A program made the translations under genes and the position numbers. Below the pieces are notes generated by a model. That model searched no databases. It saw nothing but the letters and a program-made list of their open reading frames with translations, and was not told where the DNA came from. DNA of 18,934 nucleotides from positions 1 through 18,934 of the forward strand of contig JAXMOL010000080.1 of NCBI GenBank assembly GCA_034669905.1, read 5' to 3'. Source of the stretch: Candidatus Hydrogenedentota bacterium (GTDB lineage Bacteria > Hydrogenedentota > Hydrogenedentia > Hydrogenedentales > JAEUWI01). Shown here piece after piece: positions 1-18,603 of the stretch (position 1 is the first letter of the stretch; each line of letters begins with the position of its first letter).

Positions 1-289
1 GGGCACCAAACGAAACTACCCCGGTATCTTCCTTTGGAATACGGTCATTACTCATCAATAGGCTCCTTGCCCTCAACACTAATTCTTACAAGGAGACTGT
101 CTCAACTATTCTGGCACAGAGGGTAGCGGAAGCCAGGATCGGCAACAGCATCTCGCTATTTGGCGAATTCCCAATTGGGCATCCAAAGGTGTAGAGCTTA
201 GTCTGCAAAAATATAGCGACAATGAACAGCTCACGAAACTCGGAGAAAAAGCTGAAAGTATCTTTTGGGACTGGAGCGAAACGGCGAAT

Positions 290-2788
290 GTGGAATGGTG
301 TCGAGTAATGGAAGACCGACCAGAGATTGTGACACGAAGAGATGCAAGTACCCCGATGTCGTGGATTCAGGGAAAGACAATTATCCTCTGGGGCTGTGGG
401 GCAATAGGCGGGCACGCGGCCGAGTGGTTAGCCCGGGCTGGGGCCAAAAAGTTGATTCTTTGTGACAGCGGGGTCGTGACGCCAGGGATTCTCGTGCGCC
501 AATTGTTTCGCGAGGATGACATTGGAACGAAAAAAGTGGAGGCACTTGCAGAAAGACTGAAAAGTGTTAGAGCCGGCATTGATATCGAGTTGCATTCGGG
601 CAACATTCTCGACGCAGCGAGCTATGAGCAAATTTCAACTGTAGATCTCATATTGGATTCTACTGGAAATCGTTCATTGTCGCTCAAGTTGGAAAGTCTT
701 CGAAAACAGAATGATCTCAGCGTACCTCTGGCAGCGATGATGGTCGGTCACCAAGCCACACGGGGAATGTCATTGCTCTCGATGAAATCCTTCTCTGGAG
801 GACCCTACGATGTACTCCGAAAACTAAAGCTTGTCTGTGGAAGTGACTCAAAATATCTTCATTATCTGAACGAATTTTGGCCCGAAAATCGGCGCCCCAT
901 ATTTCAACCGGAACCCGGCTGCTCGGATCCCACATTTGTTGGCTCAGCGGTTGACATATGTGGATTAGTGTCCAATATGCTGAATTTAATGGTCACGGAT
1001 TTAGGCAAGAACGAATCAAAGAAGGCATTTACTCACCTACTCACTTCGCCGACCGAGCCAAATCGAAACGAGGGGCTGGCACATTTTGAAAGAGCACTGC
1101 TGCCTGATACAGTTTCCCTGGATCCAGATAATGGGTTTGAAATGAGAATCGCTCCGTCAGTCTTGAAGGAAATTAAATCATGGATTCGCAAGTCAGTGCG
1201 CGAAACCGACCTTCTGACGGAGACCGGTGGCGTACTCTTCGGCGAAATTGACGAATTGCTCGAAACAATTTGGATTTCCGACCTGCTTGGTCCGCCTTCA
1301 GACAGTTCCGCCTCCCACCAAGGATTCAATTGCGGCACCCAAGGTGTCAGCGAGTATGAAGAGTACGTAAATAAAAGGTCGCGGGGTTCGGTGCGCTATC
1401 TCGGCATGTGGCATACCCACCCAGGAGGAGAACCAGTACCCAGCCCAACGGACTTTGAAGCAATGCGCACGCTGGTAGAAAATTATGGTTCCAAGAATGC
1501 TAAGACTGTGATGCTTATCGTGGGAGGCTCGGTCGACAACATTCGGATAGGTGCCTACGTTTTCTCGGATAACGATTTTCATCAGACTGCCTCTTGTAAC
1601 TCATACCGACCTTGTGCAGTAACAATCCCTAGTGCCCACCGCGAGACCCATCGTATCGGACTTGCTCTTTCGGGAGGTGGATCTAGAGCAATTGCATTTC
1701 ATCTGGGATGCATGCGGGCATTGAATGACTATGGGATTTTAGAAGATGTTGAGGTGATTTCTACGGTTTCCGGGGGGGCGGTCATCGGTGCGATGTACGC
1801 TTATCGAGACGATGATTTTGAGTCATTTGAGGAAGAAGTTCTCAAGCTTCTTAGGTCCGGTTTGGCAAAAGGTATTGCCATCCGATTTTTATTTTGGCCG
1901 CCGAGATTCGTTCTCGCGATTCCAATGTTCTTATTAAACCTGGGATGGAGTTGGGTTTTCGGAATTCTCATGGTTCTGTTGAGTATCACCGGGGTCGGGA
2001 AGCAATGGAAGATTCCTCCCCTGCCACGACTAATCACCAGAACAAATGCCTTTGTAGCAACTCTTGGATCCAGTTTGTTTGGTGATAAAAAAATAACGGA
2101 CCAAACTCGAAAGGGCATGAGTGTTGTAATCAGTGCCTGCGAGCTACGAACTGGATCGGCGTTTCGTTTTGGAAATCGTGAATCCGGCTCCTGGCGATTT
2201 GGGAAGGTGGAAGGCAATGACGTGGCACTAAAGGAGGCTGTCGCTGCATCCGCAGCCTACCCGATCTTCCTGCCCGCGATTGACAAGTCGTTTCCATTTA
2301 TTGATAAGAAAAACGAAAAAATACGTGAGCGAGTGATACTTACGGATGGAGGAATCTACGACAATCTTGGCGTGACATGTTTGCTACCGGGAAGGTCCAA
2401 GGAAATTAGCTACAATACGTATTCCTCAGAGCGAATCATTTGCTGCGCGGCCGGAGCCGGGCTGTTCAGCCCTGACTCAATTCCTACGCGTTGGTTTTCT
2501 CGGATTTCTCGGTCGTTTGCTGCAGTCCACCGAAAGGCTCAAGATGCTCACTTTTCAATGCTCCATCAACTTAGGTATTCTGGAGAAATAGAGAAGTTTA
2601 TCTTGCCATACCTTGGCCAAATCGACGAATGTCTTCCGTATCAGCCTCCAGACCTTGTTAAGAGACAAGAGGTGATCGGTTATCCTACGGATTTCTTTGG
2701 TATGAAGGAAGAGAATATCGAAAAGCTGGCCAAGCGCGGTGAACAGCTTACTCGACTACTGATTAAGGCATACAAGTTTGACGAGTAG
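290..2788 (+). CDS. ThiF/E1-like adenylyltransferase + JAB/MPN+ metallo-isopeptidase + patatin-like phospholipase fusion (Cap2/Cap3-related); true start uncertain
   Basis: E1 motifs: WGCGAIG (GxGxxG, ~389-409), D...LVRQ, DSTG, and putative catalytic Cys in PGCSDPTF (920-922). JAB motifs: ETGG (E at 1220) and WHTHP-x5-PSPTD (HxH...SxxD, 1409-1453). Patatin motifs: LALSGGGSRA (~1661-1690), STVSGG nucleophile Ser (1769) and LTDGG (D at 2345). The frame is open upstream to 83 with no canonical start; in-frame stops at 80-82 and 59-61. Confidence 0.88.
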   Translation: MEWCRVMEDRPEIVTRRDASTPMSWIQGKTIILWGCGAIGGHAAEWLARAGAKKLILCDSGVVTPGILVRQLFREDDIGTKKVEALAERLKSVRAGIDIELHSGNILDAASYEQISTVDLILDSTGNRSLSLKLESLRKQNDLSVPLAAMMVGHQATRGMSLLSMKSFSGGPYDVLRKLKLVCGSDSKYLHYLNEFWPENRRPIFQPEPGCSDPTFVGSAVDICGLVSNMLNLMVTDLGKNESKKAFTHLLTSPTEPNRNEGLAHFERALLPDTVSLDPDNGFEMRIAPSVLKEIKSWIRKSVRETDLLTETGGVLFGEIDELLETIWISDLLGPPSDSSASHQGFNCGTQGVSEYEEYVNKRSRGSVRYLGMWHTHPGGEPVPSPTDFEAMRTLVENYGSKNAKTVMLIVGGSVDNIRIGAYVFSDNDFHQTASCNSYRPCAVTIPSAHRETHRIGLALSGGGSRAIAFHLGCMRALNDYGILEDVEVISTVSGGAVIGAMYAYRDDDFESFEEEVLKLLRSGLAKGIAIRFLFWPPRFVLAIPMFLLNLGWSWVFGILMVLLSITGVGKQWKIPPLPRLITRTNAFVATLGSSLFGDKKITDQTRKGMSVVISACELRTGSAFRFGNRESGSWRFGKVEGNDVALKEAVAASAAYPIFLPAIDKSFPFIDKKNEKIRERVILTDGGIYDNLGVTCLLPGRSKEISYNTYSSERIICCAAGAGLFSPDSIPTRWFSRISRSFAAVHRKAQDAHFSMLHQLRYSGEIEKFILPYLGQIDECLPYQPPDLVKRQEVIGYPTDFFGMKEENIEKLAKRGEQLTRLLIKAYKFDE

Positions 2789-2846
2789 TTGATTCCAGAA
2801 GTTCTGCCATCGATGACGAAGAAGTCCCCCTGCGGTATTAGCGAAT

Positions 2847-4343
2847 CTAAGATTGCGTCACGTCGGTATCGCAATTACTGAGACCGCATGGAGGAGTAGG
2901 TGGGGAGGTGATAGTCCACGAACTACTGGTGCCACCCAGATGAACACCGCTACCAGTAGATCCCTTTGTGGGGTGCTGTGCTGTTGCGAGTACGTCTCCA
3001 CAAGCCAATGTGGTTCCGGGAGCCGGGTCTTTGTGCCAAGTGCCGTGGTCCCACCCCTGGGATTCGTGATCCTGGACCGTTAGATCGACGGGATGATGAA
3101 TGCTCGACTTTCCATGACGGTTGTCGGGACCAAATGAATAGTGTAGTCTGCAATATCTCTGGCTTCCCGCAGAAGTGGAGGGCGGCGTGCTGCTACGAGG
3201 CATCTTGGCACCATGGTGAGGAACTACAACGCCAATATAATTGCTTGGTGGCTTTATCGAAGGTGCAAGCGGCACCAAGTCATAGCCTGAATCACCTGTC
3301 ATCAGCCACCCGTTAGCCGAGCTGAGATCTTCAATGATTATTCCGAGGCATGAGGCATTTCGGTTCTTAGGATTTCCGGTACATCGAAATATCTGGAATC
3401 GTTGACCACATCCAATCAACTTGCGGATCGGCTTTTTCTTATTACCCCAAACATGGACTTTGCCGCCTGCGCCTAGTATCGAATTTGCAAATAAGGTGTG
3501 TGACGCACCCAACGGTTGTCGAGGCACGATCCAATCTTTGGCGAGGGCCGGTGAGTTCAGAGGATCTGATGCTGCAGTCCAGTGGTCTGCATCCCAATGA
3601 GAGAGCACAATCACCTTAGTTGTCTTCAAACAAAAGCGCAGAGGGGTTGGTGTCGTATGTTTGTTCCCGTAGACTCCACAGCCCAGATCGAAATACATCC
3701 ACGGTGCCTTCCCAGAATTAATTAGCCCTACCGCCGCACCTTGCCCGACGTCATATGCCACTAGCTGCTCGAAGTGAACAGATGGATCTGGAAGAACTTT
3801 TCGAATTGCTAAATCCTTTGCGTTTGGCCAAGTGTCCATGTCAAAGACCAAATTCAATGACTTCTTTTCTTCCCTGGAAACTTCCGTGATTTTGAATCGT
3901 GACGTTGTGGGATCACCGAATATGTTGTTGTATATTTCCGCAGTAACTGGGCCGTCATCTTCCTGTTCTAAGAGTTGCCAGCTTTCCGGATCTATGATTG
4001 GCGATTTTGCGAAACAGGACTTGAATTCTTCAGATGTTAAGGTGATCACGAAATGAAATATGGACAGATTGTCGAACCTTCCAGAAATCTCACCGTTTGG
4101 CTCCCTGCTTTCACGCTCGAAGGCCGAACGCCAGTACTCGCGCCAATAGGTTCGTGCGGATTTCCCAAAGACTCCATATGGGGCAAGTGCAGATTCTAGA
4201 CTCGCCGCATCGACACCACTGAGCGAGATCACTATCTCGTCCGAGCGTTCTATATCTTGGGGCTCGATATCGTCAAAGCGAACATAAGCCGATTCTGGCG
4301 TGCGGAGTCTATGCTTTGCGTCACGCTGAAAAAAACTATTCAC
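2847..4343 (-). CDS. ComEC/Rec2-like metallo-beta-lactamase-fold hydrolase with an uncharacterised ~190-aa N-terminal region
   Basis: MBL motifs YDVGQG, YFDLG, LSHWDADH (HxDxDH variant of HxHxDH), MTGD and VPHHG. GTG at 4343 has GGAGG 8 nt upstream, so it is preferred over the TTG at 4358. Confidence 0.8.
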   Translation of the reverse strand: MNSFFQRDAKHRLRTPESAYVRFDDIEPQDIERSDEIVISLSGVDAASLESALAPYGVFGKSARTYWREYWRSAFERESREPNGEISGRFDNLSIFHFVITLTSEEFKSCFAKSPIIDPESWQLLEQEDDGPVTAEIYNNIFGDPTTSRFKITEVSREEKKSLNLVFDMDTWPNAKDLAIRKVLPDPSVHFEQLVAYDVGQGAAVGLINSGKAPWMYFDLGCGVYGNKHTTPTPLRFCLKTTKVIVLSHWDADHWTAASDPLNSPALAKDWIVPRQPLGASHTLFANSILGAGGKVHVWGNKKKPIRKLIGCGQRFQIFRCTGNPKNRNASCLGIIIEDLSSANGWLMTGDSGYDLVPLAPSIKPPSNYIGVVVPHHGAKMPRSSTPPSTSAGSQRYCRLHYSFGPDNRHGKSSIHHPVDLTVQDHESQGWDHGTWHKDPAPGTTLACGDVLATAQHPTKGSTGSGVHLGGTSSSWTITSPPTPPCGLSNCDTDVTQS

Positions 4344-4499
4344 GAAAACTTCCTCCAAACTGACAGTCTCTCACGTACTCATATACTCACTGAGGCCGTC
4401 GCCATTCTCCCGATTCTGTCACCCCGGCCGTGCAAACCAACTCTGCGTACCTCCGAGATAGTACGGGATAGGTTTTGACGGTGATAAGAATCTTTTCCT

Positions 4500-5426
4500 T
4501 CACAAATGGACCACCTCGACGCCGTATCTTTCTGCCAAATGGTCGGAGACACAGTGGCGGTGGCAATCGTGGGCTTGGTGCTCGAAGCAGGTGAGTGCGA
4601 TGCGACGGTGTTCTTCCAACAGGGCGCGCACCCGCTTCAGCGCGTCTTCCTGGCGCGGGAGCTCTTTTGCGTAGGTCTCGAAAAGGGCCTCACGAACGCC
4701 TTCTTCGTTCAGATTCTGGCGACTTTCTGAGTCAATACCGAGATCAGGGATATGCGCGTAGTCTATACCCAATTTGGGTAGCAGGGAGCCCAATGCCTTT
4801 CCCGAAAAGCCAAATTTCCGGCTCAGGGGATTTCGTCGTACGTCACACAGTAGCCGAATCCCGTTTTGGAGGAGCTTATTGACGTAGGCCTCAAAATGGA
4901 TGCCCTCATACCCCAAGGTAAACAACGTCTGCGCTGGTTCCGAATCATTGTTTACTGCCGCGTGAACCCGTGCGAGTTCGTTGTCGGTAAGGAGCCGTTC
5001 TTTCATTTCGCTTCGAATGGCGTAGTAGGGAAATCGTTGGTAGACTTCTCGGATAAGTTGGTCGCCCCGTTGTGTTTTTTCCGAGAGCCAACGTGTTAAC
5101 TCTAACCGCTCGGGGCTCTCCGAGGCCCATGCCTGACCGACCAACGAGGTTTGGAGCTTCACATGGGTCCGTCCGATCTCCAGCCACCCTCTTTTCTCCA
5201 ACAATTCCAAATCATCGGTAGCCAAGAAGGAGTAACATCCGTACTTGTAGGGTACGAACGCATAGTGAGACGTTCCTGACTCCTGTATGTAGAGAAAGAG
5301 TAGTTTTTGCAGGTCTAACTTGCTCAGATGGCCTTTGGCGGCATGGAGCAAAAATAGCAGGAGCCGCTGCCGATGGTAAACGGGCGGCGTCATAGGGCGT
5401 GCAGTGTTGCCCTTTAAGATTGACAT
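4500..5426 (-). CDS. DUF488-family protein with an N-terminal wHTH/Panacea(SocA)-like domain
   Basis: C-terminal half has LFTLGYEG, LLCDVRRNPLSRKFGFS, YAHIPDLG and CFEHQAHDCHR (CxE-x5-CHR), typical of DUF488. N-terminal KLDLQKLLFL...FVPYKYGCYS resembles Panacea/DarG-C-like wHTH. AAGGAG precedes the ATG at 5426. Confidence 0.82.
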   Translation of the reverse strand: MSILKGNTARPMTPPVYHRQRLLLFLLHAAKGHLSKLDLQKLLFLYIQESGTSHYAFVPYKYGCYSFLATDDLELLEKRGWLEIGRTHVKLQTSLVGQAWASESPERLELTRWLSEKTQRGDQLIREVYQRFPYYAIRSEMKERLLTDNELARVHAAVNNDSEPAQTLFTLGYEGIHFEAYVNKLLQNGIRLLCDVRRNPLSRKFGFSGKALGSLLPKLGIDYAHIPDLGIDSESRQNLNEEGVREALFETYAKELPRQEDALKRVRALLEEHRRIALTCFEHQAHDCHRHCVSDHLAERYGVEVVHL

Positions 5427-5723
5427 GGGTATTCTCCTTGGGCATATCCTAGCATTTCAGAGCGCTTGAGTCACTTCCAGTGCGTCAAGTGTGGCCGTTT
5501 TGGCGTCCGTCTGAAAGCGCTATGCCGTTGCTTCGCCGCCACAATCTCGACGACACCCGGCGAAGCGTATTGCCCTGCGCGGTGGATACCCTTGTTGCGC
5601 TAAAAATGCGCTATACTGGGTTACCCGGTTCGTCTTGCGCCGCAGCAGGGAGGGCCTGGTGGGTCAACGGTTTCCTGGTGCCGACGTATCGAAGCGCCCG
5701 GTCTTGGAACAGGTGGAGAGCGC

Positions 5724-7409
5724 ATGAAAAGTTTTACGTCCATGCTCTATTACTATATGGGGCATCGGGGTTCGCGGAGAAACCTGGGGGCGCTGGCCCG
5801 TTTTATCGTGGTGCTGGTCTTGCTGGTCACGGTGTGCAGTGTGATCTTTCATCTGCTCATGCTGCGGGAGGGGCGGGAGTATAGCTGGGTAACCGGGTTC
5901 TACTGGACGCTCACGGTCATGTCGACGCTGGGCTTTGGGGATATTACCTTCCATTCGGATCTGGGACGTGCTTTTTCGGTGGTGGTGCTGTTGACCGGGG
6001 TGCTCTTCCTCCTCGTGCTGCTGCCCTTTACCTTTATCGAATTCTTTTATCAGCCCTGGATGGATGCCCAGAAGGCGGCCAGTGTCCCGACGCGGGTGTC
6101 CGATGAACTCAGTGGCCATGTGTTGCTGACCAACTACGGCCCTATCGAACGGGTGCTCATTCAGCGGCTTGACCAATATGACTATACCTACGTGGTCCTG
6201 GCGTCCGATGCAGACGAAGCCCAGCGTATGCACGGGGACGGCGTTGAAGTGGTTATTGGTCCCTTGGATAACCCGGAGACCTATGAGAATGCACGGGCCG
6301 ATCACGCGGCACTTATCGCGACGACAGGCGATGAGATTCTGAATACCAGCATCGCGGTGGCCGCGCGGGCCGTATCGCAAAGCGTTCCGATTGTCGCCCT
6401 GGCGCGCCGTTCCTCGGCGGTGAGCGTCCTCAAGGTGGCGGGCTGCACGCGGGTTATCGAGCTGGGTGAAATGATGGGGCGCGCGCTGGCCCGTCGTGCG
6501 AATGGAGGTCCCACGGTTTCTCATGTGGTGGGCCGTTTCGGCGATCTGCTCATCGCCGAGGCCAACGCCGCAGAGACGCCCCTGGTGGGGAAGACCCTCA
6601 TCGAAAGCAACATACGCAACCTCGCCAACGTCAACGTGGTGGGGGTCTGGGAGCGGGGCATCTTCGAAGCGGCCCGTCCGGATACGGAAGTGGACCAGAA
6701 CGACGTGGTGTTACTGGCCGGTTCGCAGCAGCAATTGGATACCTTTGAAGGCCTTTGCCAGCGTGCGCCGCGCTCTTCCAACCTGGCGATTATCGTTGGT
6801 GGTGGCCGGGTGGGCCGTGCGGTGGCCACCCTGCTGGACGAATTGGGTATGAATTGGAAGTTGGTGGAGTCGGACCGGGAACGGATGCGCGATCCGGAGC
6901 ACTACGTCGTGGGCGATGCCACGGAGCCCAAAGTGTTGCTCGAGGCGGGGCTGGTCGAAGCGTCGACCATCATCATTACCACCCGCGACGACGACATTAA
7001 TATTTACCTGGCGATTTTCTGCCGCAAGGCGCGGCCCGACATCCAGATCATCTGTCGGAGCTCCATCGATCGCAATGTGCCCACCATGCACCGGGTGGGG
7101 TGTAACTTTGTGTTGTCTTACGCCTCGATGGGTGCCAATGCCATCTTCAACCTGTTGAAACGCAGCGATGTGCTCATGGTGGCCGAAGGGCTCGATGTGT
7201 TCCGCATGCCCTTGCCCGAATCGCTCATTGGCCGCACCCTGGCGGAGTCGGATATACGGCAGGCCACGGGATGCAACGTTATTGGCCTCGGCCGGAACAA
7301 CATTCTCAGCATCAACCCCGAGCCCACCACCGTGCTCTCCGAAGGCATGGAAATCGTGGTCATCGGGACGGTCGAAGCCGAGAACCAATTCCTGCAGAAA
7401 TTCTCCTGA
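5724..7409 (+). CDS. Potassium channel protein (2TM + pore) with tandem RCK_N/RCK_C (TrkA-N/TrkA-C) domains
   Basis: Two TM helices flank the pore sequence FYWTLTVMSTLGFGDI (TxGFG filter). Two RCK_N-RCK_C repeats follow, the second with GGGRVG and GDAT. GGAGAG precedes the ATG. Confidence 0.9.
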   Translation: MKSFTSMLYYYMGHRGSRRNLGALARFIVVLVLLVTVCSVIFHLLMLREGREYSWVTGFYWTLTVMSTLGFGDITFHSDLGRAFSVVVLLTGVLFLLVLLPFTFIEFFYQPWMDAQKAASVPTRVSDELSGHVLLTNYGPIERVLIQRLDQYDYTYVVLASDADEAQRMHGDGVEVVIGPLDNPETYENARADHAALIATTGDEILNTSIAVAARAVSQSVPIVALARRSSAVSVLKVAGCTRVIELGEMMGRALARRANGGPTVSHVVGRFGDLLIAEANAAETPLVGKTLIESNIRNLANVNVVGVWERGIFEAARPDTEVDQNDVVLLAGSQQQLDTFEGLCQRAPRSSNLAIIVGGGRVGRAVATLLDELGMNWKLVESDRERMRDPEHYVVGDATEPKVLLEAGLVEASTIIITTRDDDINIYLAIFCRKARPDIQIICRSSIDRNVPTMHRVGCNFVLSYASMGANAIFNLLKRSDVLMVAEGLDVFRMPLPESLIGRTLAESDIRQATGCNVIGLGRNNILSINPEPTTVLSEGMEIVVIGTVEAENQFLQKFS

Positions 7410-7430: not shown

Positions 7431-9449
7431 CTACTTGGCGTCCACCGTCAGGCGATAGGTTCGCACGGCAAAGGCGGGCAGCGTCGTCTGAAAGTCCTCT
7501 TCCATCGTGACGGGCCGGTCTTCCTCCAGGGAATGGGCCGTGCTCACCGACGAGTTCCACGCGATGTGGACCGCCTGCTCCTTGAGGTCAGGGTTGATGA
7601 GGAAGAGGTAGGTGGCCCCGTCGTATTCCCGGGTGAAGTGAAGGATGCCCTCGCCTGAAACCGTGCCGATAGCAGGCCCTTCGGGTGCGAGGAAAATGGG
7701 GGAGCGGTCCCGTAGTTCGCCTGCGATGCGTTTGAGGTTGGCCCAGTGCTCCGGGTATTCCTTCAGATAAGTGGCAGAGGAATGGTAGGCGTAAAAGAGG
7801 ACGCCCTGTTGGCCCGCTGCGATGGAGAGGTAGGCGATACAGCGCTCTTCCTCATAGGAGGGCACGCGTCCGTCCGCACGATTTTCCTTGTCAAACTCGT
7901 CTTCATATTTGAAAGCCTGCAGGACCGATGCCGCCGTCGTGGGCGTAAGGGCTGCCCGCGCGTCCTCCTGATTTTTGTGGAGGATTTCACCGAGGGCGTG
8001 TTGAGGCTTCAAGGGCGTGCGCAGGGTGTAGGGATCGGGGAGCAGGAGGTCCACGGCATTGATATAGTTCGCGCTATCGCGGACCACCATGGCCACCGGG
8101 CGGGCGGGGTCGATGGCGCGCATCCAGTCATACATGACCCGCGCCTTGACGGGACTCCATCCGCTCATGTCGCCTTCGTCTTTCAGGAGCCACCCGATGA
8201 CCGACGGGTGGCGGGTAAAGCTGCGCATCTGTGCTTCCACCGCCGTTTTGTGGAGGCCTTCGACGCCCGTCATTTGGACGAGGACCCACAAGCCGTGTTG
8301 GTCGGCCAGGTCGAGGTAGGCGTTGACCTGTTTGTCCCGGCCGCTGGCGGTGCCGTAGTTCTGGATGGTGTTGAATCCGGCCTCAGCGAGTTCGCGAAAG
8401 AGGGGCGCGCAACTCGCCACATTGGCATCGGTCATGTAGGAGTTTTCTTCCAGGTCCGTGCGTTCTTCCATCACCGCGTAAAGGCCGATGAGGAAGCGCG
8501 GTACACCATCGATAAGGAGCTTTCCTTCGGGTGAGATGGTGACCCGGTGGGGCGCATCCACGGGCACGATGGGCTCGGGCACTTCCACCGGGACCGCCGC
8601 CGCGCCTTCGGGAACGACGAAGTGCTCAGAACTCCCATAGCGTGCCGTGTCGGGGTTCACCAGGGCGGCACTGGCAATGGCGACACGCCAATACCAGGAG
8701 CCGGGTTCCAGGGGGGGATCCACGCGCCAGTGGTCCGTATCCAGGAGGGGGCCAACGCGGTGGGTTTGTGCCGCGGGGAAGTCGGGGGAGGAGCTGAGTT
8801 GAAGGGCGAAACTCGCGTCCGCCGGGGCCTGCCAGCGGAGGACCGGGTTGGATTCCGCTACTTCGTGGCCATCAATGGGGGCAAGGGCCGTCGCTTCCAC
8901 CGCCACAATCTGAAAGTTGCGGTACCAGACTTTTTTCGAATCATGATAGTGCACGATATCAAAGGGGATGTCGCCTGCCAGGGCACCCGAGTTGACCTGG
9001 ATGGAATAGCGGTCCCAAATCCGGGGTTGGTCGCTGTTGGGCACCGGCAATTCACGGCCAAAGATATGGCAGCGCGTCACGCCGCCCTGGTCGGTCAAGG
9101 TGTCATACATGCGGTCAAAGGAAACCCGGTAATCGGTGTTGGGCAGAATGCCCGCCATGGTGGTCTTCCAGATATACCATCCCCTGCCCGGTGTCGGCGT
9201 TGAATCCAGGAACAAGGCCCAGTGGCCGTCGGCCGTTTGTTCATAGCCCGCGCGGGCACCGCCATGTTCCCAATGCGAGTGCGCATCGCCCGCGCTTCCG
9301 TCTATGGGATTCAGAAAGTGAGCGGTAGGTGGGGTGACGTTATTTTCCTGGGCGCAAATGGGGATGGGGGACATGGCGACGGCGAGGAGGGCCAGGGCGA
9401 GCGTCCACGTGGCGGGCATATGGAAGACCGTAGGTGCGTGTTTTTTCAT
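7431..9449 (-). CDS. Secreted carbohydrate-active-like protein (N-terminal beta-sandwich/CBM-like region, C-terminal TIM-barrel glycoside-hydrolase-like domain); family unassigned
   Basis: Signal-peptide-like MKKH...LALALLAVAMSPIPICA. LLIDGVPRFLIGLY, AGFNTI, HPSVIGWLLKDE and IDPARPV resemble clan GH-A barrels. Start set at ATG 9449; 9419 is also possible and 9641 is probably too long. Confidence 0.6.
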   Translation of the reverse strand: MKKHAPTVFHMPATWTLALALLAVAMSPIPICAQENNVTPPTAHFLNPIDGSAGDAHSHWEHGGARAGYEQTADGHWALFLDSTPTPGRGWYIWKTTMAGILPNTDYRVSFDRMYDTLTDQGGVTRCHIFGRELPVPNSDQPRIWDRYSIQVNSGALAGDIPFDIVHYHDSKKVWYRNFQIVAVEATALAPIDGHEVAESNPVLRWQAPADASFALQLSSSPDFPAAQTHRVGPLLDTDHWRVDPPLEPGSWYWRVAIASAALVNPDTARYGSSEHFVVPEGAAAVPVEVPEPIVPVDAPHRVTISPEGKLLIDGVPRFLIGLYAVMEERTDLEENSYMTDANVASCAPLFRELAEAGFNTIQNYGTASGRDKQVNAYLDLADQHGLWVLVQMTGVEGLHKTAVEAQMRSFTRHPSVIGWLLKDEGDMSGWSPVKARVMYDWMRAIDPARPVAMVVRDSANYINAVDLLLPDPYTLRTPLKPQHALGEILHKNQEDARAALTPTTAASVLQAFKYEDEFDKENRADGRVPSYEEERCIAYLSIAAGQQGVLFYAYHSSATYLKEYPEHWANLKRIAGELRDRSPIFLAPEGPAIGTVSGEGILHFTREYDGATYLFLINPDLKEQAVHIAWNSSVSTAHSLEEDRPVTMEEDFQTTLPAFAVRTYRLTVDAK

Positions 9450-9657
9450 GAGGGAATGACTCGTTTGTTTGTTGGGTGCCGTTTGGGTAAATGGGGCGTC
9501 GTGTTGGCCAGAAGGATGGGTTGCAGTAGAGCATAGCGCCATCGTTGATGCAAAAAGTTTGGCGCGGGGTGCCCATTCTTCAGGAGCTTGGACACTTGAA
9601 GAAAAAACGCCCTGCACGGTGTTCGTGCAGGGCGCTGTCATTCACGTGTGCCTGGCG

Positions 9658-14942: not shown

Positions 14943-16685
14943 ATGAATCCGTCACAAGGGAATAGCAACGCGCGGGGGGGCTTCGCGCGTTTTTTTACAT
15001 CTACTGATCACAAGGTCGTCGCCATTCAATATGTGGTGACCGCGCTGATCATGCTCTTCGTCGGCTTTTTGTTCATGCTGCTTATGCGCTGGCAACTCGC
15101 CTACCCCTATCAGTCTTTGCCGTTTATCGGCAGTTGGTTCGCCGACGATCACCCCACCATGCCCGGTGGAGTGATAACGGCCAACTTTTACAACCAATTG
15201 GGTGCCATGCACGGCACCATCATGATTTTCCTGGCCGTGGTGCCCCTCGTGGCCGGTGGCTTTGGCACCTACCTCGTACCCCTCATGATCGGCGCCAGGG
15301 GACTCGCCTTTCCGCGACTGAGCAAACTGGGCTACTGGTGTTATCTCGGCGGCACGCTCATCCTGTTGGGAAGTTTCTTCCTGCCCGGTGGGGCCGCCAA
15401 CTCCGGTTGGACCGCCTACGCGCCCCTTTCTATCATTGAGAATGCGGGTCAGACCACCTGGCTCATCGGCGTGGCCTTTGTCTATCTTTCTTCGCTGATG
15501 CTGAGCATCAATATCCTCACGACCATCGTGCAGCTCCGCACCGAAGGGCTGGGCTTCATGCGAATGCCCTACTTCGTGTGGAGCCAACTGGTGACCAGCC
15601 TACTGCTCCTGCTGGCCTTTCCTCCCCTCGCGGCGGCAGCGGCTATGCAGTTGATGGACCGGGTCGTGGGCACAAGCTTTTTCCTGCCCAGTGGCCTCGT
15701 CGTCAGCGGTGAGGCCCTGGACGTGAGTGGTGGCGGCAGCGCCCTCCTGTGGCAGCACCTCTTCTGGTTCCTCGGTCACCCGGAGGTATACGTACTCCTG
15801 TTGCCGGCATTCGGCATCGTGGCGGAGGTTATCGCCAACAACACCCGCAAGCCCCTCTTTGGCTACCGGGGCATGGTACACGCCACCCTCTTCCTGGGGC
15901 TCATGTCCATGCTCGTCTGGGCGCACCATATGTTCCTCACGGGAATGGGCACGGCCATGAGCGAGTTTTTCCAGATGACTACCATCATCATCTCGCTTCC
16001 GTCGGTCATTGTGGCCTCTTCGCTGGTGGTATCCCTTTGGGGTGGCTCCATTCGCTTTACCGTGCCCATGCTCTACGCACTGGCCTTCCTGCCCATGTTT
16101 GCCATCGGCGGATTGACCGGATTGCCCCTGGCCATGTCGGCCACCAATATCATGTTGCACGACACGTATTATGTGATTGGTCACTTCCACTACGTGGTGG
16201 CGCCGGGTATTCTCTTTGCCGTGTTCGCGGGTATCTATTACTGGTTCCCCAAGGTGACGGGTCGGAAGATGAACGACCTGCTCGGTAAGCTTCACTTCTG
16301 GCCGACGCTCATCTGTATGAACGGGATCTTTTCCCATCTCATCCTGCAGGGCTTCGCCGGGGTTTCCCGCCGCCTCTATGATGGGGGCGAGACCTATGCC
16401 CACGGCCTGGAAGTCTTCAGCCTGAATTCCGCTGCGACCTGGGCCGCCTTTGGCCTGCTCGTGGTGCAGATTTTCTTTATTATTAACTTTTTCTACAGTA
16501 TGAAATGGGGGCAGAAAGTCGACAGCAATCCCTGGGAGGCCACCTCCCTGGAGTGGGCGGCACCTTCCCCGCCCTTACCCGATGTGAATTTCGAGACGCC
16601 CCCCGTGGCCTATCGCGATGCCATGACCTACAGTGAATCGGGGGCCGAAAAAGACTATACGCCCCAGTGGGAGGCCTCCTCATGA
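14943..16685 (+). CDS. ctaD: Heme-copper (cytochrome c) oxidase subunit I, A-family fold, divergent
   Basis: TSTDHK, AMHGTIM, GWTAY, WFLGHPEVY, WAHHM, LHDTYYVIGHFHY, SRR and NPWEATSLEW. All six His ligands and the cross-linking Tyr are present. Confidence 0.95.
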   Translation: MNPSQGNSNARGGFARFFTSTDHKVVAIQYVVTALIMLFVGFLFMLLMRWQLAYPYQSLPFIGSWFADDHPTMPGGVITANFYNQLGAMHGTIMIFLAVVPLVAGGFGTYLVPLMIGARGLAFPRLSKLGYWCYLGGTLILLGSFFLPGGAANSGWTAYAPLSIIENAGQTTWLIGVAFVYLSSLMLSINILTTIVQLRTEGLGFMRMPYFVWSQLVTSLLLLLAFPPLAAAAAMQLMDRVVGTSFFLPSGLVVSGEALDVSGGGSALLWQHLFWFLGHPEVYVLLLPAFGIVAEVIANNTRKPLFGYRGMVHATLFLGLMSMLVWAHHMFLTGMGTAMSEFFQMTTIIISLPSVIVASSLVVSLWGGSIRFTVPMLYALAFLPMFAIGGLTGLPLAMSATNIMLHDTYYVIGHFHYVVAPGILFAVFAGIYYWFPKVTGRKMNDLLGKLHFWPTLICMNGIFSHLILQGFAGVSRRLYDGGETYAHGLEVFSLNSAATWAAFGLLVVQIFFIINFFYSMKWGQKVDSNPWEATSLEWAAPSPPLPDVNFETPPVAYRDAMTYSESGAEKDYTPQWEASS

Positions 16686-17272
16686 GTATGCCGTATACGA
16701 CCGAAGTCCGGCCCGACACAGGACTCTACAATGCGAAGTTGGGTATGTGGCTGTTTCTGGCAGCCGAAGCCATGTTCTTCGGCGCCCTCTTCTCCAGCTA
16801 CGCCTTCCTGCGCACCGCGTCGGAAAGCTGGCCCGTGGGATCAGAGGTTCTGCCGGTCGGCGTGGGCGTCGTTACGTCCATTGCCGTGATTCTCGCGGGA
16901 TTGTTTATTGCCCGTGGCTGGAGCGATCTGGCCAAGCCCGACCGGGGGCGCCATGCCACCTGGATGTGGGCCACGATTGTGGCGGGTGTGGCCGTTATCA
17001 TCGGCATCGTGGTGGACCACCGCATTGAAGCCGGCCAGGGGATGGTCGCTGCGACCAATACCTTCTATGCCTGCTGGTACCTCATCACCGGGGCCCTGTG
17101 CGCCCATGTGGTGGTGGCGGTGGCCTACACCCTGTACCTTGGCTTGCCGGGCTCCGACATGCGGCGTAACGATCCGGTGCGCTACCGCAACCGGGTGGAA
17201 TGCCTCGGGCTCTTCTGGCAGTTTCTGGTCCTTACCTGGCTCGCGACCTTCGCGTGCTTCTACGTGTTTTAG
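16682..17272 (+). CDS. ctaE: Heme-copper oxidase subunit III (short CyoC/CtaE-like form)
   Basis: GMWLFLAAEAMFFGALF, FYACWYLITG and GLFWQFL; about five TM segments. ATGA start/stop overlap with subunit I at 16682-16685. Confidence 0.85.
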   Translation: MSMPYTTEVRPDTGLYNAKLGMWLFLAAEAMFFGALFSSYAFLRTASESWPVGSEVLPVGVGVVTSIAVILAGLFIARGWSDLAKPDRGRHATWMWATIVAGVAVIIGIVVDHRIEAGQGMVAATNTFYACWYLITGALCAHVVVAVAYTLYLGLPGSDMRRNDPVRYRNRVECLGLFWQFLVLTWLATFACFYVF

Positions 17273-17280
17273 GAGGTACT

Positions 17281-17487
17281 ATGTCGCTCAAATCTTTTCA
17301 CCTCTTCGTAGGGCTGCTCTCGGTTGTCGGGTGCTGCGCCTATGGCATGTGGTCTATCCTTTCTTTTCTGCGCGACGGCGACGTGACCCGCTTGCTCGTT
17401 GCGGTGCCCCTGTTGGCATTGGCCCTGGCACTCATCATGAACAGCGTCATCTTCTATAAACACACGGAGCAAGAACCATGGCTATGA
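17281..17487 (+). CDS. Small two-TM membrane protein (68 aa) in the oxidase operon
   Basis: AGGAGG RBS then ATG 17281 (MSLKSFHLFV...). Two hydrophobic segments. Stop overlaps the next ATG (ATGA at 17484-17487). Confidence 0.75.
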   Translation: MSLKSFHLFVGLLSVVGCCAYGMWSILSFLRDGDVTRLLVAVPLLALALALIMNSVIFYKHTEQEPWL

Positions 17488-17777
17488 AGTATCTCACCGC
17501 CATCGGATTCGCTTTCCTGGCCCAGGGAGCCCTGGCCTGTGCGACCTGTTCCGGTCCGGCGGACGCGCCTCAGACCCTGGGGATGAATGCCGCCATACTG
17601 ACCCTCTTCGGCGTCTTCTGTGTGGTTGGATTGACCATCGCCAGTTTTATTGGCCTCATCGCCTTACGCGTCATGCGTCAAAATCGGGCGGATGCTCCGG
17701 AACAGGTCAGAGGGAGCGAGTCGCTTGCCCCTGCAGCCGATGTCCTGTCTGGCAGCCCCATGATGTTGGAGTCCTGA
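17484..17777 (+). CDS. Small exported, membrane-anchored protein with a CxxC motif
   Basis: Signal peptide MKYLTAIGFAFLAQGALA, then CATC, then one TM helix. Translationally coupled; ATG 17478 is an alternative start. Confidence 0.75.
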   Translation: MKYLTAIGFAFLAQGALACATCSGPADAPQTLGMNAAILTLFGVFCVVGLTIASFIGLIALRVMRQNRADAPEQVRGSESLAPAADVLSGSPMMLES

Positions 17778-17781
17778 AACG

Positions 17782-18603
17782 ATGTCTATTTATCCATTCA
17801 GCTACTTTCCCGCCCTCGCGTCGGAGCACGGTGCGACCATCGACCGCCTGATGATTCTCGTCTGTGTCTTTATGACGCTGATTTTTCTCGGGTGGCTCGT
17901 CTTCTTCATCTACACTCTGTTGCGCTTTCGCGGCAGCAAACAACCCACCGCACAGGCGGAGAGCATTAAGGGCCGCTGGGTCTATGGCCTGGCCGTCGGC
18001 ATTCTCCTCGTGGAACTCTTTATTCACGTCGGATTGGGCGGCGGTACGGGTGCGGCACAACTGAGTGCCATCAGCCCCACGGAAGAAACCGTGCAGGTCC
18101 GGGTCGTGGCCCAGCAGTTCGCCTGGAACATTCACTATCCCGGCGCCGACGGCATCTTTGGTACTACGTCCCCCGAATTCTTCAATGACCAGACGAACCC
18201 CGTGGGCATTGATCCCGATGACGAACACGGTAAAGATGACATCGTCACCTTCAAGCAACTCTTTCTCCCGGTGGATAAGCCGGTGCGCATTGAGCTGACT
18301 TCAAAGGACGTGATTCACAGCTTTTTCCTGCCGGAGTTTCGCATCAAGCAAGATGTGATTCCCGGCATGGAAATTCCCGTGACCTTCGTGCCCACCATGA
18401 CGACCGATCAGTTTCGGGAGTTGAAGGGTGACGAGACCCGTGATTTTGAAATCGCCTGCGCCCAGCTCTGTGGGATTACCCACTACACCATGAAGGGCAT
18501 GGTGCGTATCCTCGACCAGGAAGGCTTTGACGCCTGGCTCGTCGAAAAGGCTCCCAAAGAAGGCGGCGATGAAGACGATTTCTGGGGGACGGACGACTTT
18601 TAG
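17782..18603 (+). CDS. ctaC: Cytochrome c oxidase subunit II (CuA)
   Basis: Two TM helices, VVAQQFAWNIHYPG, TSKDVIHSFFLP, KQDVIPG and the CuA motif CAQLCGITHYTM. No fused CxxCH domain. Confidence 0.93.
   Translation: MSIYPFSYFPALASEHGATIDRLMILVCVFMTLIFLGWLVFFIYTLLRFRGSKQPTAQAESIKGRWVYGLAVGILLVELFIHVGLGGGTGAAQLSAISPTEETVQVRVVAQQFAWNIHYPGADGIFGTTSPEFFNDQTNPVGIDPDDEHGKDDIVTFKQLFLPVDKPVRIELTSKDVIHSFFLPEFRIKQDVIPGMEIPVTFVPTMTTDQFRELKGDETRDFEIACAQLCGITHYTMKGMVRILDQEGFDAWLVEKAPKEGGDEDDFWGTDDF

Follow-up and report, generated by a model that had tools for sequence, protein, structure and literature searches.

The window considered here is an 18,934-nucleotide stretch of DNA at the start of contig C80 (JAXMOL010000080.1) of the Candidatus Hydrogenedentota genome G000, and begins with a gene that encodes a ubiquitin-like E1 ligase domain, a JAB peptidase and a patatin-like phospholipase in one chain. 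The locus is probably a 6A-MBL operon, in which a gene for a metallo-beta-lactamase (MBL) fold protein precedes an E2-E1-JAB ligase gene, with a patatin fused to the ligase C-terminus as third component and with the ligase gene split by an insertion sequence (IS); the accompanying working model is one of two effectors licensed by contact.

The ligase gene and the insertion sequence

Reading frame +2 lacks stop codons from position 83 through the stop codon at 2786-2788, and the open reading frame (ORF) in it, which is 832 amino acids long, matches the Pfam families ThiF (E 4e-19), Prok-JAB (E 8e-10) and Patatin (E 2e-18) in that order and above their cut-offs, as well as the PADLOC models for E1-E2 (E 1e-60) and JAB (E 2e-26). 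An earlier note on this DNA had recognised E1, JAB and patatin motifs in one open frame and had proposed the same three Pfam families as a check; both points are borne out, with every motif at the position it gave, including Cys 920 and Ser 1769. The fusion is widespread in nature: a protein search yielded 991 matches among 8,000 candidates scored, and counts out of 120 refer to the best 120 of these 991, the window fragment included. PEPGC is present in all 120, ETGG in 119/120 and WH[TS]HP in 114/120. All 120 listed matches carry E1, JAB and patatin in a single chain, which rules out a stop-loss fusion, an artefact that the earlier note had itself considered. According to domain hidden Markov models (HMMs), 117 of the 120 are E2-E1-JAB-patatin proteins of mostly about 1,160 amino acids, seven of which begin inside E2, and the remaining three are the window fragment and two proteins that start mid-linker. 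In the alignment A1, the E2 Cys position does not vary. The hydrophobic insert of the patatin is helical in the structure model and exceeds a Kyte-Doolittle value of 1.6 in just 27 of the 120 homologues; judged by this hydropathy, members of the family do not share a true transmembrane helix, and the insert is likely to contact the membrane.

Table 1. Features at the start of the window, with positions on the forward strand
Feature	Positions	Strand	Remarks
IS3-like element, one end, multicopy	1..123	-	transposase genes oriented away from the E1-JAB-patatin ORF
Target-site duplication TAG, 3 bp	124..126		repeated at C94 9500-9502
3' part of 6A-MBL cap2_3 gene with fused patatin	127..2788	+	homologue residues ~262 to end
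E2-E1 linker, C-terminal part	127..373	+	contains the GTG at 290 of the earlier note; ~41-46% identity to homologues from 113-143 on
E1 (ThiF/MoeB-like) adenylation domain	374..1060	+	GxGxxG at 392, catalytic Cys codon 920 in PEPGC; 3' boundary approximate
JAB/MPN+ metallopeptidase	1214..1528	+	Glu 1220, HxH 1412-1420, SxxD 1442; Pfam Prok-JAB
Patatin-like phospholipase	1646..2788	+	GGGxR 1673, Ser 1769, DGG 2345; Pfam Patatin
Hydrophobic helical insert within patatin	1925..1996	+	Kyte-Doolittle up to 2.0 over 19 residues
503-aa protein, C-terminal ComEC-like MBL region, N-terminus without assignment	2847..4358	-	TIGR00361 E 0.026; HWDADH motif
DUF488 protein	4500..5426	-	PADLOC PDC-M19A E 4e-96; weak DarG-like N-terminus; last gene of low-GC island

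The GTG at 290 had been taken as the start of a complete protein, which does not hold, as homology extends upstream of it to 113-143 and there meets the IS end. A frameshift near the contig start is ruled out, since the other frames of positions 1-127 lack homology and the sequence there is that of the IS. What remains of the proposed E1-JAB-patatin architecture is the fused patatin, whereas the three-domain form is the product of an IS insertion into an E2-E1-JAB-patatin gene. No sigma-70-like promoter was found in window 1-400, and no clear ribosome-binding site was seen by eye before 290, 308 or 356. ORFs at the edge of a contig can mimic new domain architectures, and the window ORF is a cautionary case.

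The missing part of the gene was located by tblastn of six full-length homologues against G000, in which homologue residues 1 to 261/268 map to contig C94 and residues from 260/267 to the end map to C80. E2 and linker, up to about residue 261, are encoded at 8718-9506 of C94, of which 8718-9502 is the part of the gene up to the IS. The joined coding bases of C94 and C80 make whole codons in register and would encode 1,148 amino acids if uninterrupted. Window positions 1-123 recur identically at five contig ends of G000, and the other IS end occupies 9503-9626 of C94, the last 124 bases of which are found at six contig ends, C94 included. An imperfect inverted repeat is common to both ends, and other IS copies also have matching 3-bp flanks, TAT for the pair C39 and start of C4 and GTA for C87 and end of C4. 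The interior of the element is absent from the assembly, and it is labelled IS3-like because ends of 73-77% identity in genomes G030 and G080 adjoin HTH_Tnp_1 and rve ORFs and because the C94 end encodes a minus-strand peptide resembling the C-terminus of the rve transposase in G030; it would have inserted in the opposite orientation to the gene. The IS end has no match in plasmids. Identical copies, at least five or six of them, break the G000 assembly at contig ends C1, C2, C4, C15, C39, C64, C77, C80, C87 and C94. Outside their TG-starting inverted repeat, the IS ends have seven bases that do not vary, an arrangement that is unusual for IS3.

Read data agree in outline. Sequencing depth in four public runs of one study is 21-68 over bases 1-150 versus 0-7 over the gene, and in run X2 a unitig of 1,651 nucleotides with a depth of 48 terminates at window position 123, the gene having a depth of about 6. 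One unitig spans window 94-512 and lends the junction weak support; its IS side counts 30 letters, where the bridging rule asks for one more. For an IS-free allele, no loose end before 124-127 is seen in the four runs, three of which have no cover just past the junction; the missing loose end is no proof that such an allele is absent, because contigs drop rare variants and because of these gaps in cover.

The copy in G000 is most likely dead, given that an IS3-like element sits in the E2-E1 linker. The break separates the ligase from E2 and from part of its linker, and no promoter is evident for what remains, so that the system is probably off, and no second copy of it was found in G000 by HMM. 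The locus would thus be an example of a recent IS insertion disabling a defence island, and, being broken, the copy is a poor test object. Other broken copies are found elsewhere: an IS5 transposase cuts the MBL tail in a Roseomonas plasmid (L086), and the patatin of locus L022 is broken up by a frameshift. Inactivation of the 6A-MBL and patatin system looks recurrent.

The operon and its relatives

Upstream of the E2 part, C94 carries an MBL-fold ORF (7559-8725) which overlaps the E2 start at 8718 and scores 277.7 bits on the 6A-MBL enzyme model NF058524 (cut-off 220). The 6A-MBL cap2_3 model NF058523 has a cut-off of 320, and the window part (248.8 bits) and the C94 half (75.1 bits) were each scored against it separately; all six intact homologues tested reach 357-396. 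In place of the upstream cyclase which the earlier note had envisaged, the upstream inspection that it had asked for gave an MBL-fold gene, neither a cyclase nor a ubiquitin-like protein (Ubl). The C94 ORF list, read by eye without an HMM scan, showed no ORF that resembles a cyclase, and neither on C94 beside the operon nor in the window was a ubiquitin-like modifier seen, no dedicated Ubl profile having been run.

The GC content of the region is 0.50-0.51 versus 0.60 in the flanks, with a sharp step from 0.50 to 0.60 at about window 5430, which marks the right edge of an island whose left edge lies on C94 between about 7300 and 7559. The system is present in one of 135 genomes of the phylum, that of G000 itself. 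Low GC and this distribution rule out vertical inheritance; judged by them, the island is horizontally acquired.

The arrangement corresponds to operon row 6a of Iyer, Burroughs and Aravind 2006, in which E2-E1-JAB stands beside an MBL (PMC1779556). A review (PMC13276650), which credits van den Berg et al. 2024 with the test, names 6A-MBL among the systems whose anti-phage action was confirmed in Pseudomonas aeruginosa, and a preprint counts it among jumbo-phage defences (10.1101/2025.09.30.679545). The locus shares with 6A-MBL the order of an MBL gene followed by E2-E1-JAB, and the C94 MBL and the intact homologues pass the curated cut-offs. It differs in the patatin on the ligase C-terminus, which extends about 400 amino acids past the 665-position NF058523 model, in the MBL ending, which is VGFG plus a short tail whereas the highest-scoring clade on the models ends in PRAG, and in that the G000 copy lacks an intact E2-E1-JAB gene, this being split by the IS between C94 and C80. 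As the patatin is fused both here and in 29 of 46 clusters of related loci (see below), the locus is regarded as a variant of the two-gene 6A-MBL. The 6A-MBL core is already known; what sets the window apart is the IS break. The earlier reading of an anti-phage ubiquitin-like module retains its fused patatin and its mention of 6A-MBL among the candidate systems, and loses its three-domain architecture and its possible cyclase upstream; its own proviso, that the architecture might match a described system, largely applies, in that the core fits 6A-MBL and the patatin fusion differs. No description of a patatin in 6A-MBL was found in the literature searched, where the available parts of PMC12035536 and PMC13069673 hold nothing relevant and primary reports or supplements may hold one; nor did this literature yield a mechanism for 6A-MBL. 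With ligase, peptidase and lipase on one chain and the MBL beside it, this would be a two-protein system in which a link of ubiquitin-like conjugation to membrane killing is directly testable, and three-gene versions sit on plasmids of cultured bacteria, among them Ruegeria (L084) and Bradyrhizobium (L080).

Related loci were collected by a metagenome scan seeded with the patatin motif, of which the best 80 of 554 matches gave 66 loci. An MBL lies directly upstream of the ligase in 58 of the 59 loci whose DNA covers the E2 start plus 400 bases or more before it. Both E1 and JAB are present in 63 of the 66, the other three ending before JAB, and these group into 46 clusters at 90% identity, which were sorted by hand by their third component. 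The patatin is fused in 29 clusters, a share inflated by the use of the patatin motif and of the best 80 of 554 matches; two clusters have a separate patatin of the same family and one a second MBL with a distant patatin. The rest comprise one fused calcineurin-like phosphoesterase, seven small membrane proteins (two of them Csx27-like, one on the opposite strand) and six with another component or none. The phosphoesterase, in L031-L033 (e.g. L032 5001-8477), takes the place of the patatin on E2-E1-JAB at the same total length of 1,158 amino acids. Three types of small membrane protein follow E2-E1-JAB where the patatin is missing (L008, L010 and L058; L041/L043 and L055; L016 and L052), one of which is weakly Csx27-like (E 2e-8), the other two being without a match in the libraries tested. 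On plasmids, 14 records, several of them near-duplicates, have a full-length patatin of the family, all beside E1/JAB genes; nine neighbourhoods were inspected directly and five read from joined or paired matches. Of these patatins, the one from Rhizobium is annotated in two pieces. A separate gene for a patatin of the family (36-50% identity) makes up a three-gene form, which is found in the VGFG clade and also in the distant PRAG clade. In a tree made by a quick method from 54 rows (one per 90% cluster plus six plasmid proteins), with many open forks, fused and unfused patatin forms are interspersed, and no order of events is claimed.

All 36 aligned MBLs keep HxDxDH, D228, HH and a terminal F-G, with 0-7 residues after the tail Gly, which is the last residue in just 2/36. 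More distant MBLs end in RAG, YG, HG or other Gly motifs. The predicted local distance difference test score (pLDDT) is 53-77 in the tail versus mostly 85-98 in the core, so the tail is flexible in the model. The conserved Gly tail is likely to be the substrate of conjugation, by analogy with CBASS (the antiphage signalling system based on cyclic oligonucleotides), and a C-terminal Gly tail would be a hallmark of the 6A-MBL family going by a statement on type II CBASS, Pycsar and MBL in PMC11601596. The closest solved structure to the MBL is the ComEC nuclease domain, followed by the phosphorylcholine esterase Pce, with phosphodiesterases among the fold neighbours, and there are weak matches to Avs1a, LmuA and reverse transcriptase (RT)-associated MBL models.

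The AlphaFold2 model of a four-domain homologue (P0004; mean pLDDT 81.9, predicted template modelling score, pTM, 0.74) matches first Cap2 and then other E1s, Atg7 complexes (Atg7-Atg10 and Atg7-Atg3) and patatins (patatin, PlpD, VipD); CBASS Cap2 (7TO3) is the solved structure that the E1 matches best, in sequence as well as in fold. The pTM of this model, which comes without inter-domain errors, hints at a definite packing of the domains. A predicted complex of the MBL with the JAB-patatin part scores 0.54 versus 0.00 for the best control, with at least 74% of contacts shared between runs and a partner pLDDT of at least 81. The mark for such scores is reached by 116 of 157 solved pairs versus 2 of 215 mismatched pairs, and at or below 0.60 lie 18 of the 157 solved pairs and both mismatches, so that the prediction faintly suggests an association of the MBL with JAB-patatin.

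Like type II CBASS, the operon combines a Cap2-like E2-linker-E1 with a JAB akin to Cap3; its partner enzyme likewise ends in a flexible tail that is conserved, and a patatin fills the effector position. It differs in that the MBL takes the place of the CD-NTase (cGAS/DncV-like nucleotidyltransferase) and in that ligase, peptidase and lipase form one chain; the adjacent cyclase of type II CBASS and Pycsar is replaced by the MBL here as in 58/59 loci. The CBASS patatin CapV is of a different family, with no PADLOC CBASS phospholipase match at E <= 0.05 for the window domain and two homologues at about 1e-3. The Trypsin-MBL, Avs1a and HamM nucleases also have a ComEC-like MBL fold in an anti-phage operon, but they are activated by a trypsin-like protease which cuts internal loops, and there is no such protease here (10.1101/2025.11.14.688446; 10.1101/2025.09.03.673762). 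Unlike these protease-activated MBLs, the MBL of the present operon appears to be controlled by C-terminal conjugation. The Bil/Bub systems likewise bring E1, E2 and JAB activities together in an operon that resembles those of defence systems, whereas their separate beta-grasp Ubl was not seen here and both E1 and E2 Cys are kept, unlike in Bub.

A working model and its alternatives

Cap2 adenylates the flexible tail of cGAS and hands it on to a target by way of the E1 Cys and the E2 Cys, a reaction that Cap3 reverses (10.1101/2022.03.31.486616), and the E1 Cys, the E2 Cys and the last residue are required for Cap2-dependent immunity in Bacillus (PMC11153139). It is this homology to the Cap2 system that casts the MBL as substrate. 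In the working model, JAB trims the 0-7 residues that follow the C-terminal FG of the MBL and exposes the Gly, the extra residues implying a second, maturing job for JAB. The E1 would then adenylate this Gly and pass it by way of the E1 Cys and the E2 Cys to a target lysine, a step that by analogy to Cap2 with CD-NTases is very likely. JAB would also reverse the conjugate and so keep the system off. Infection would change the conjugation state and thereby license two effectors: the MBL would act as nuclease or phosphodiesterase, and the patatin, switched by contact with the MBL/ligase complex, would degrade the membrane in abortive infection, although this particular route is tentative and is held with somewhat less than even confidence. 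The model of two effectors is favoured because related defence MBLs are latent DNases (10.1101/2025.11.14.688446; 10.1101/2025.09.03.673762). At the level of the whole family, 6A-MBL may be a three-part, CBASS-like pathway without a cyclase, in which the conjugated state of the MBL or a product of the MBL switches an exchangeable effector, most often a patatin that occurs only beside E1/JAB in the loci examined; this generalisation is possible rather than probable. If true, it would place a bacterial phospholipase under the ubiquitin-like modification of its own cell, possibly by way of a novel messenger or of a conjugate linked to lipid. Host ubiquitin activates some pathogen patatins.

Several points weigh against a split 6A-MBL operon with contact-licensed effectors. 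The junction of IS and gene rests on one assembly and one unitig from a single study that is possibly the source of the assembly; the C94-C80 join rests on homology, protein continuity and the target duplication, with no spanning read, and C2 and C64 carry the same 3-bp flank. The patatin is not obligatory, as 14 of the 46 metagenome clusters have none behind the ligase, and the curated 6A-MBL system consists of two genes and no lipase. The complex prediction comes without an interface and cannot separate an MBL touching JAB, as expected, from one touching the patatin, so that binding of the MBL tail by JAB accounts for the score as well as binding of the patatin does.

In the foremost alternative, the logic is that of CBASS with the cyclase left out: once conjugated, the MBL would make a diffusible signal, a nucleotide or a lipid head-group product, for which the third gene is a swappable receptor-effector. 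The MBL indeed occupies the position of the CD-NTase and carries its tail, the third slot is exchangeable among the 46 clusters, and phosphodiesterases and Pce are among the fold neighbours of the MBL. However, a hydrolase fold is not known to act as a second-messenger synthase, the Pfam scan places no ligand-binding domain such as SAVED on the patatin, which also lacks a match to the CBASS phospholipase models, and the related defence MBLs are themselves killing DNases, all of which make a messenger rather unlikely.

Compared with the dead copy favoured here, a split locus that still functions as two pieces, an E2 half and an E1-JAB-patatin half, is improbable. Neither half has further stops or frameshifts, and the ligase is annotated as two ORFs on a Streptomyces plasmid. 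Intact halves are nonetheless expected after a recent insertion, as indicated by IS ends that are 100% identical across copies, and the break falls in the linker that positions E2 in Cap2, with about 55 linker residues upstream of the first start codon and no promoter-like site in this part of the window.

A further alternative centres on lipids, in that an ATG7/ATG3-like ligase would link the MBL tail to the amine of a membrane phospholipid and the patatin would release or remodel the conjugate, with no killing of the cell. The fold matches to Atg7-Atg10 and Atg7-Atg3, the description of Cap2 as ATG7/ATG3-like (10.1101/2022.03.31.486616), the lipid- or membrane-directed nature of most third components and the conjugation of a CBASS cyclase at the membrane, to PspA (PMC11153139), are all compatible with such a reaction, but the target described for Cap2 is a protein lysine (PMC11153139), and there is only a slim chance that the lipid route applies. 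Least probable, and largely refuted already, is the self-contained E1-JAB-patatin of the earlier note, whose E1 senses a phage protein or whose JAB frees the patatin in cis: its single open frame with all catalytic motifs and the three of 120 listed matches without E2 speak for it, but those three are the window fragment and two proteins beginning mid-linker, the E2 half is present on C94, the MBL tail is the obvious JAB substrate, and cis cleavage is unlikely and needless because the same patatin family forms a separate gene in many loci.

Neighbouring genes and other loci

The gene at 2847-4358 is convergent with the patatin end, and the ESM Atlas contains clusters of its family (score 0.97). 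It was considered as a member of the system on account of its MBL-like region and rejected; having no homologue in any other fetched locus, it is taken as a neighbour, possibly a stand-alone defence gene. Further along, window 14943-18603 (+) holds an ordinary-looking cytochrome c oxidase-like cluster, judged by eye from the ORF list.

Other arrangements were encountered among the fetched loci. In L083 (Mesorhizobium plasmid NZ_CP080523.1) a patatin of the same family (45% identity) stands behind a ComEC-like MBL in an E2/E1/JAB operon of another kind, the order at 1258-6164 being a 57-amino-acid peptide ending in GGEY, E2, a Phd-fused E2-like protein, E1, a JAB fusion, a tail-less ComEC-like MBL and the patatin. 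This is possibly an undescribed peptide-modifier system that shares the MBL-patatin pair. Distant patatins near L036, L053, L061, L064 and L066 belong to a different subfamily (31-41% identity in partial matches) and were excluded from the family counts. Helix-turn-helix (HTH) and ImmA/IrrE-like metallopeptidase regulators lie upstream of the MBL in L053, L061, L064, L066, L081, L084 and L085, and four loci have a distant patatin on the far side of the HTH/ImmA-IrrE-like genes. L065 has a SIR2-containing Argonaute-associated protein (4632-7175; PADLOC E 2e-154) directly downstream of the 6A-MBL operon, and a contig from the IMG/VR viral collection (L096) contains a full-length match to the four-domain protein.

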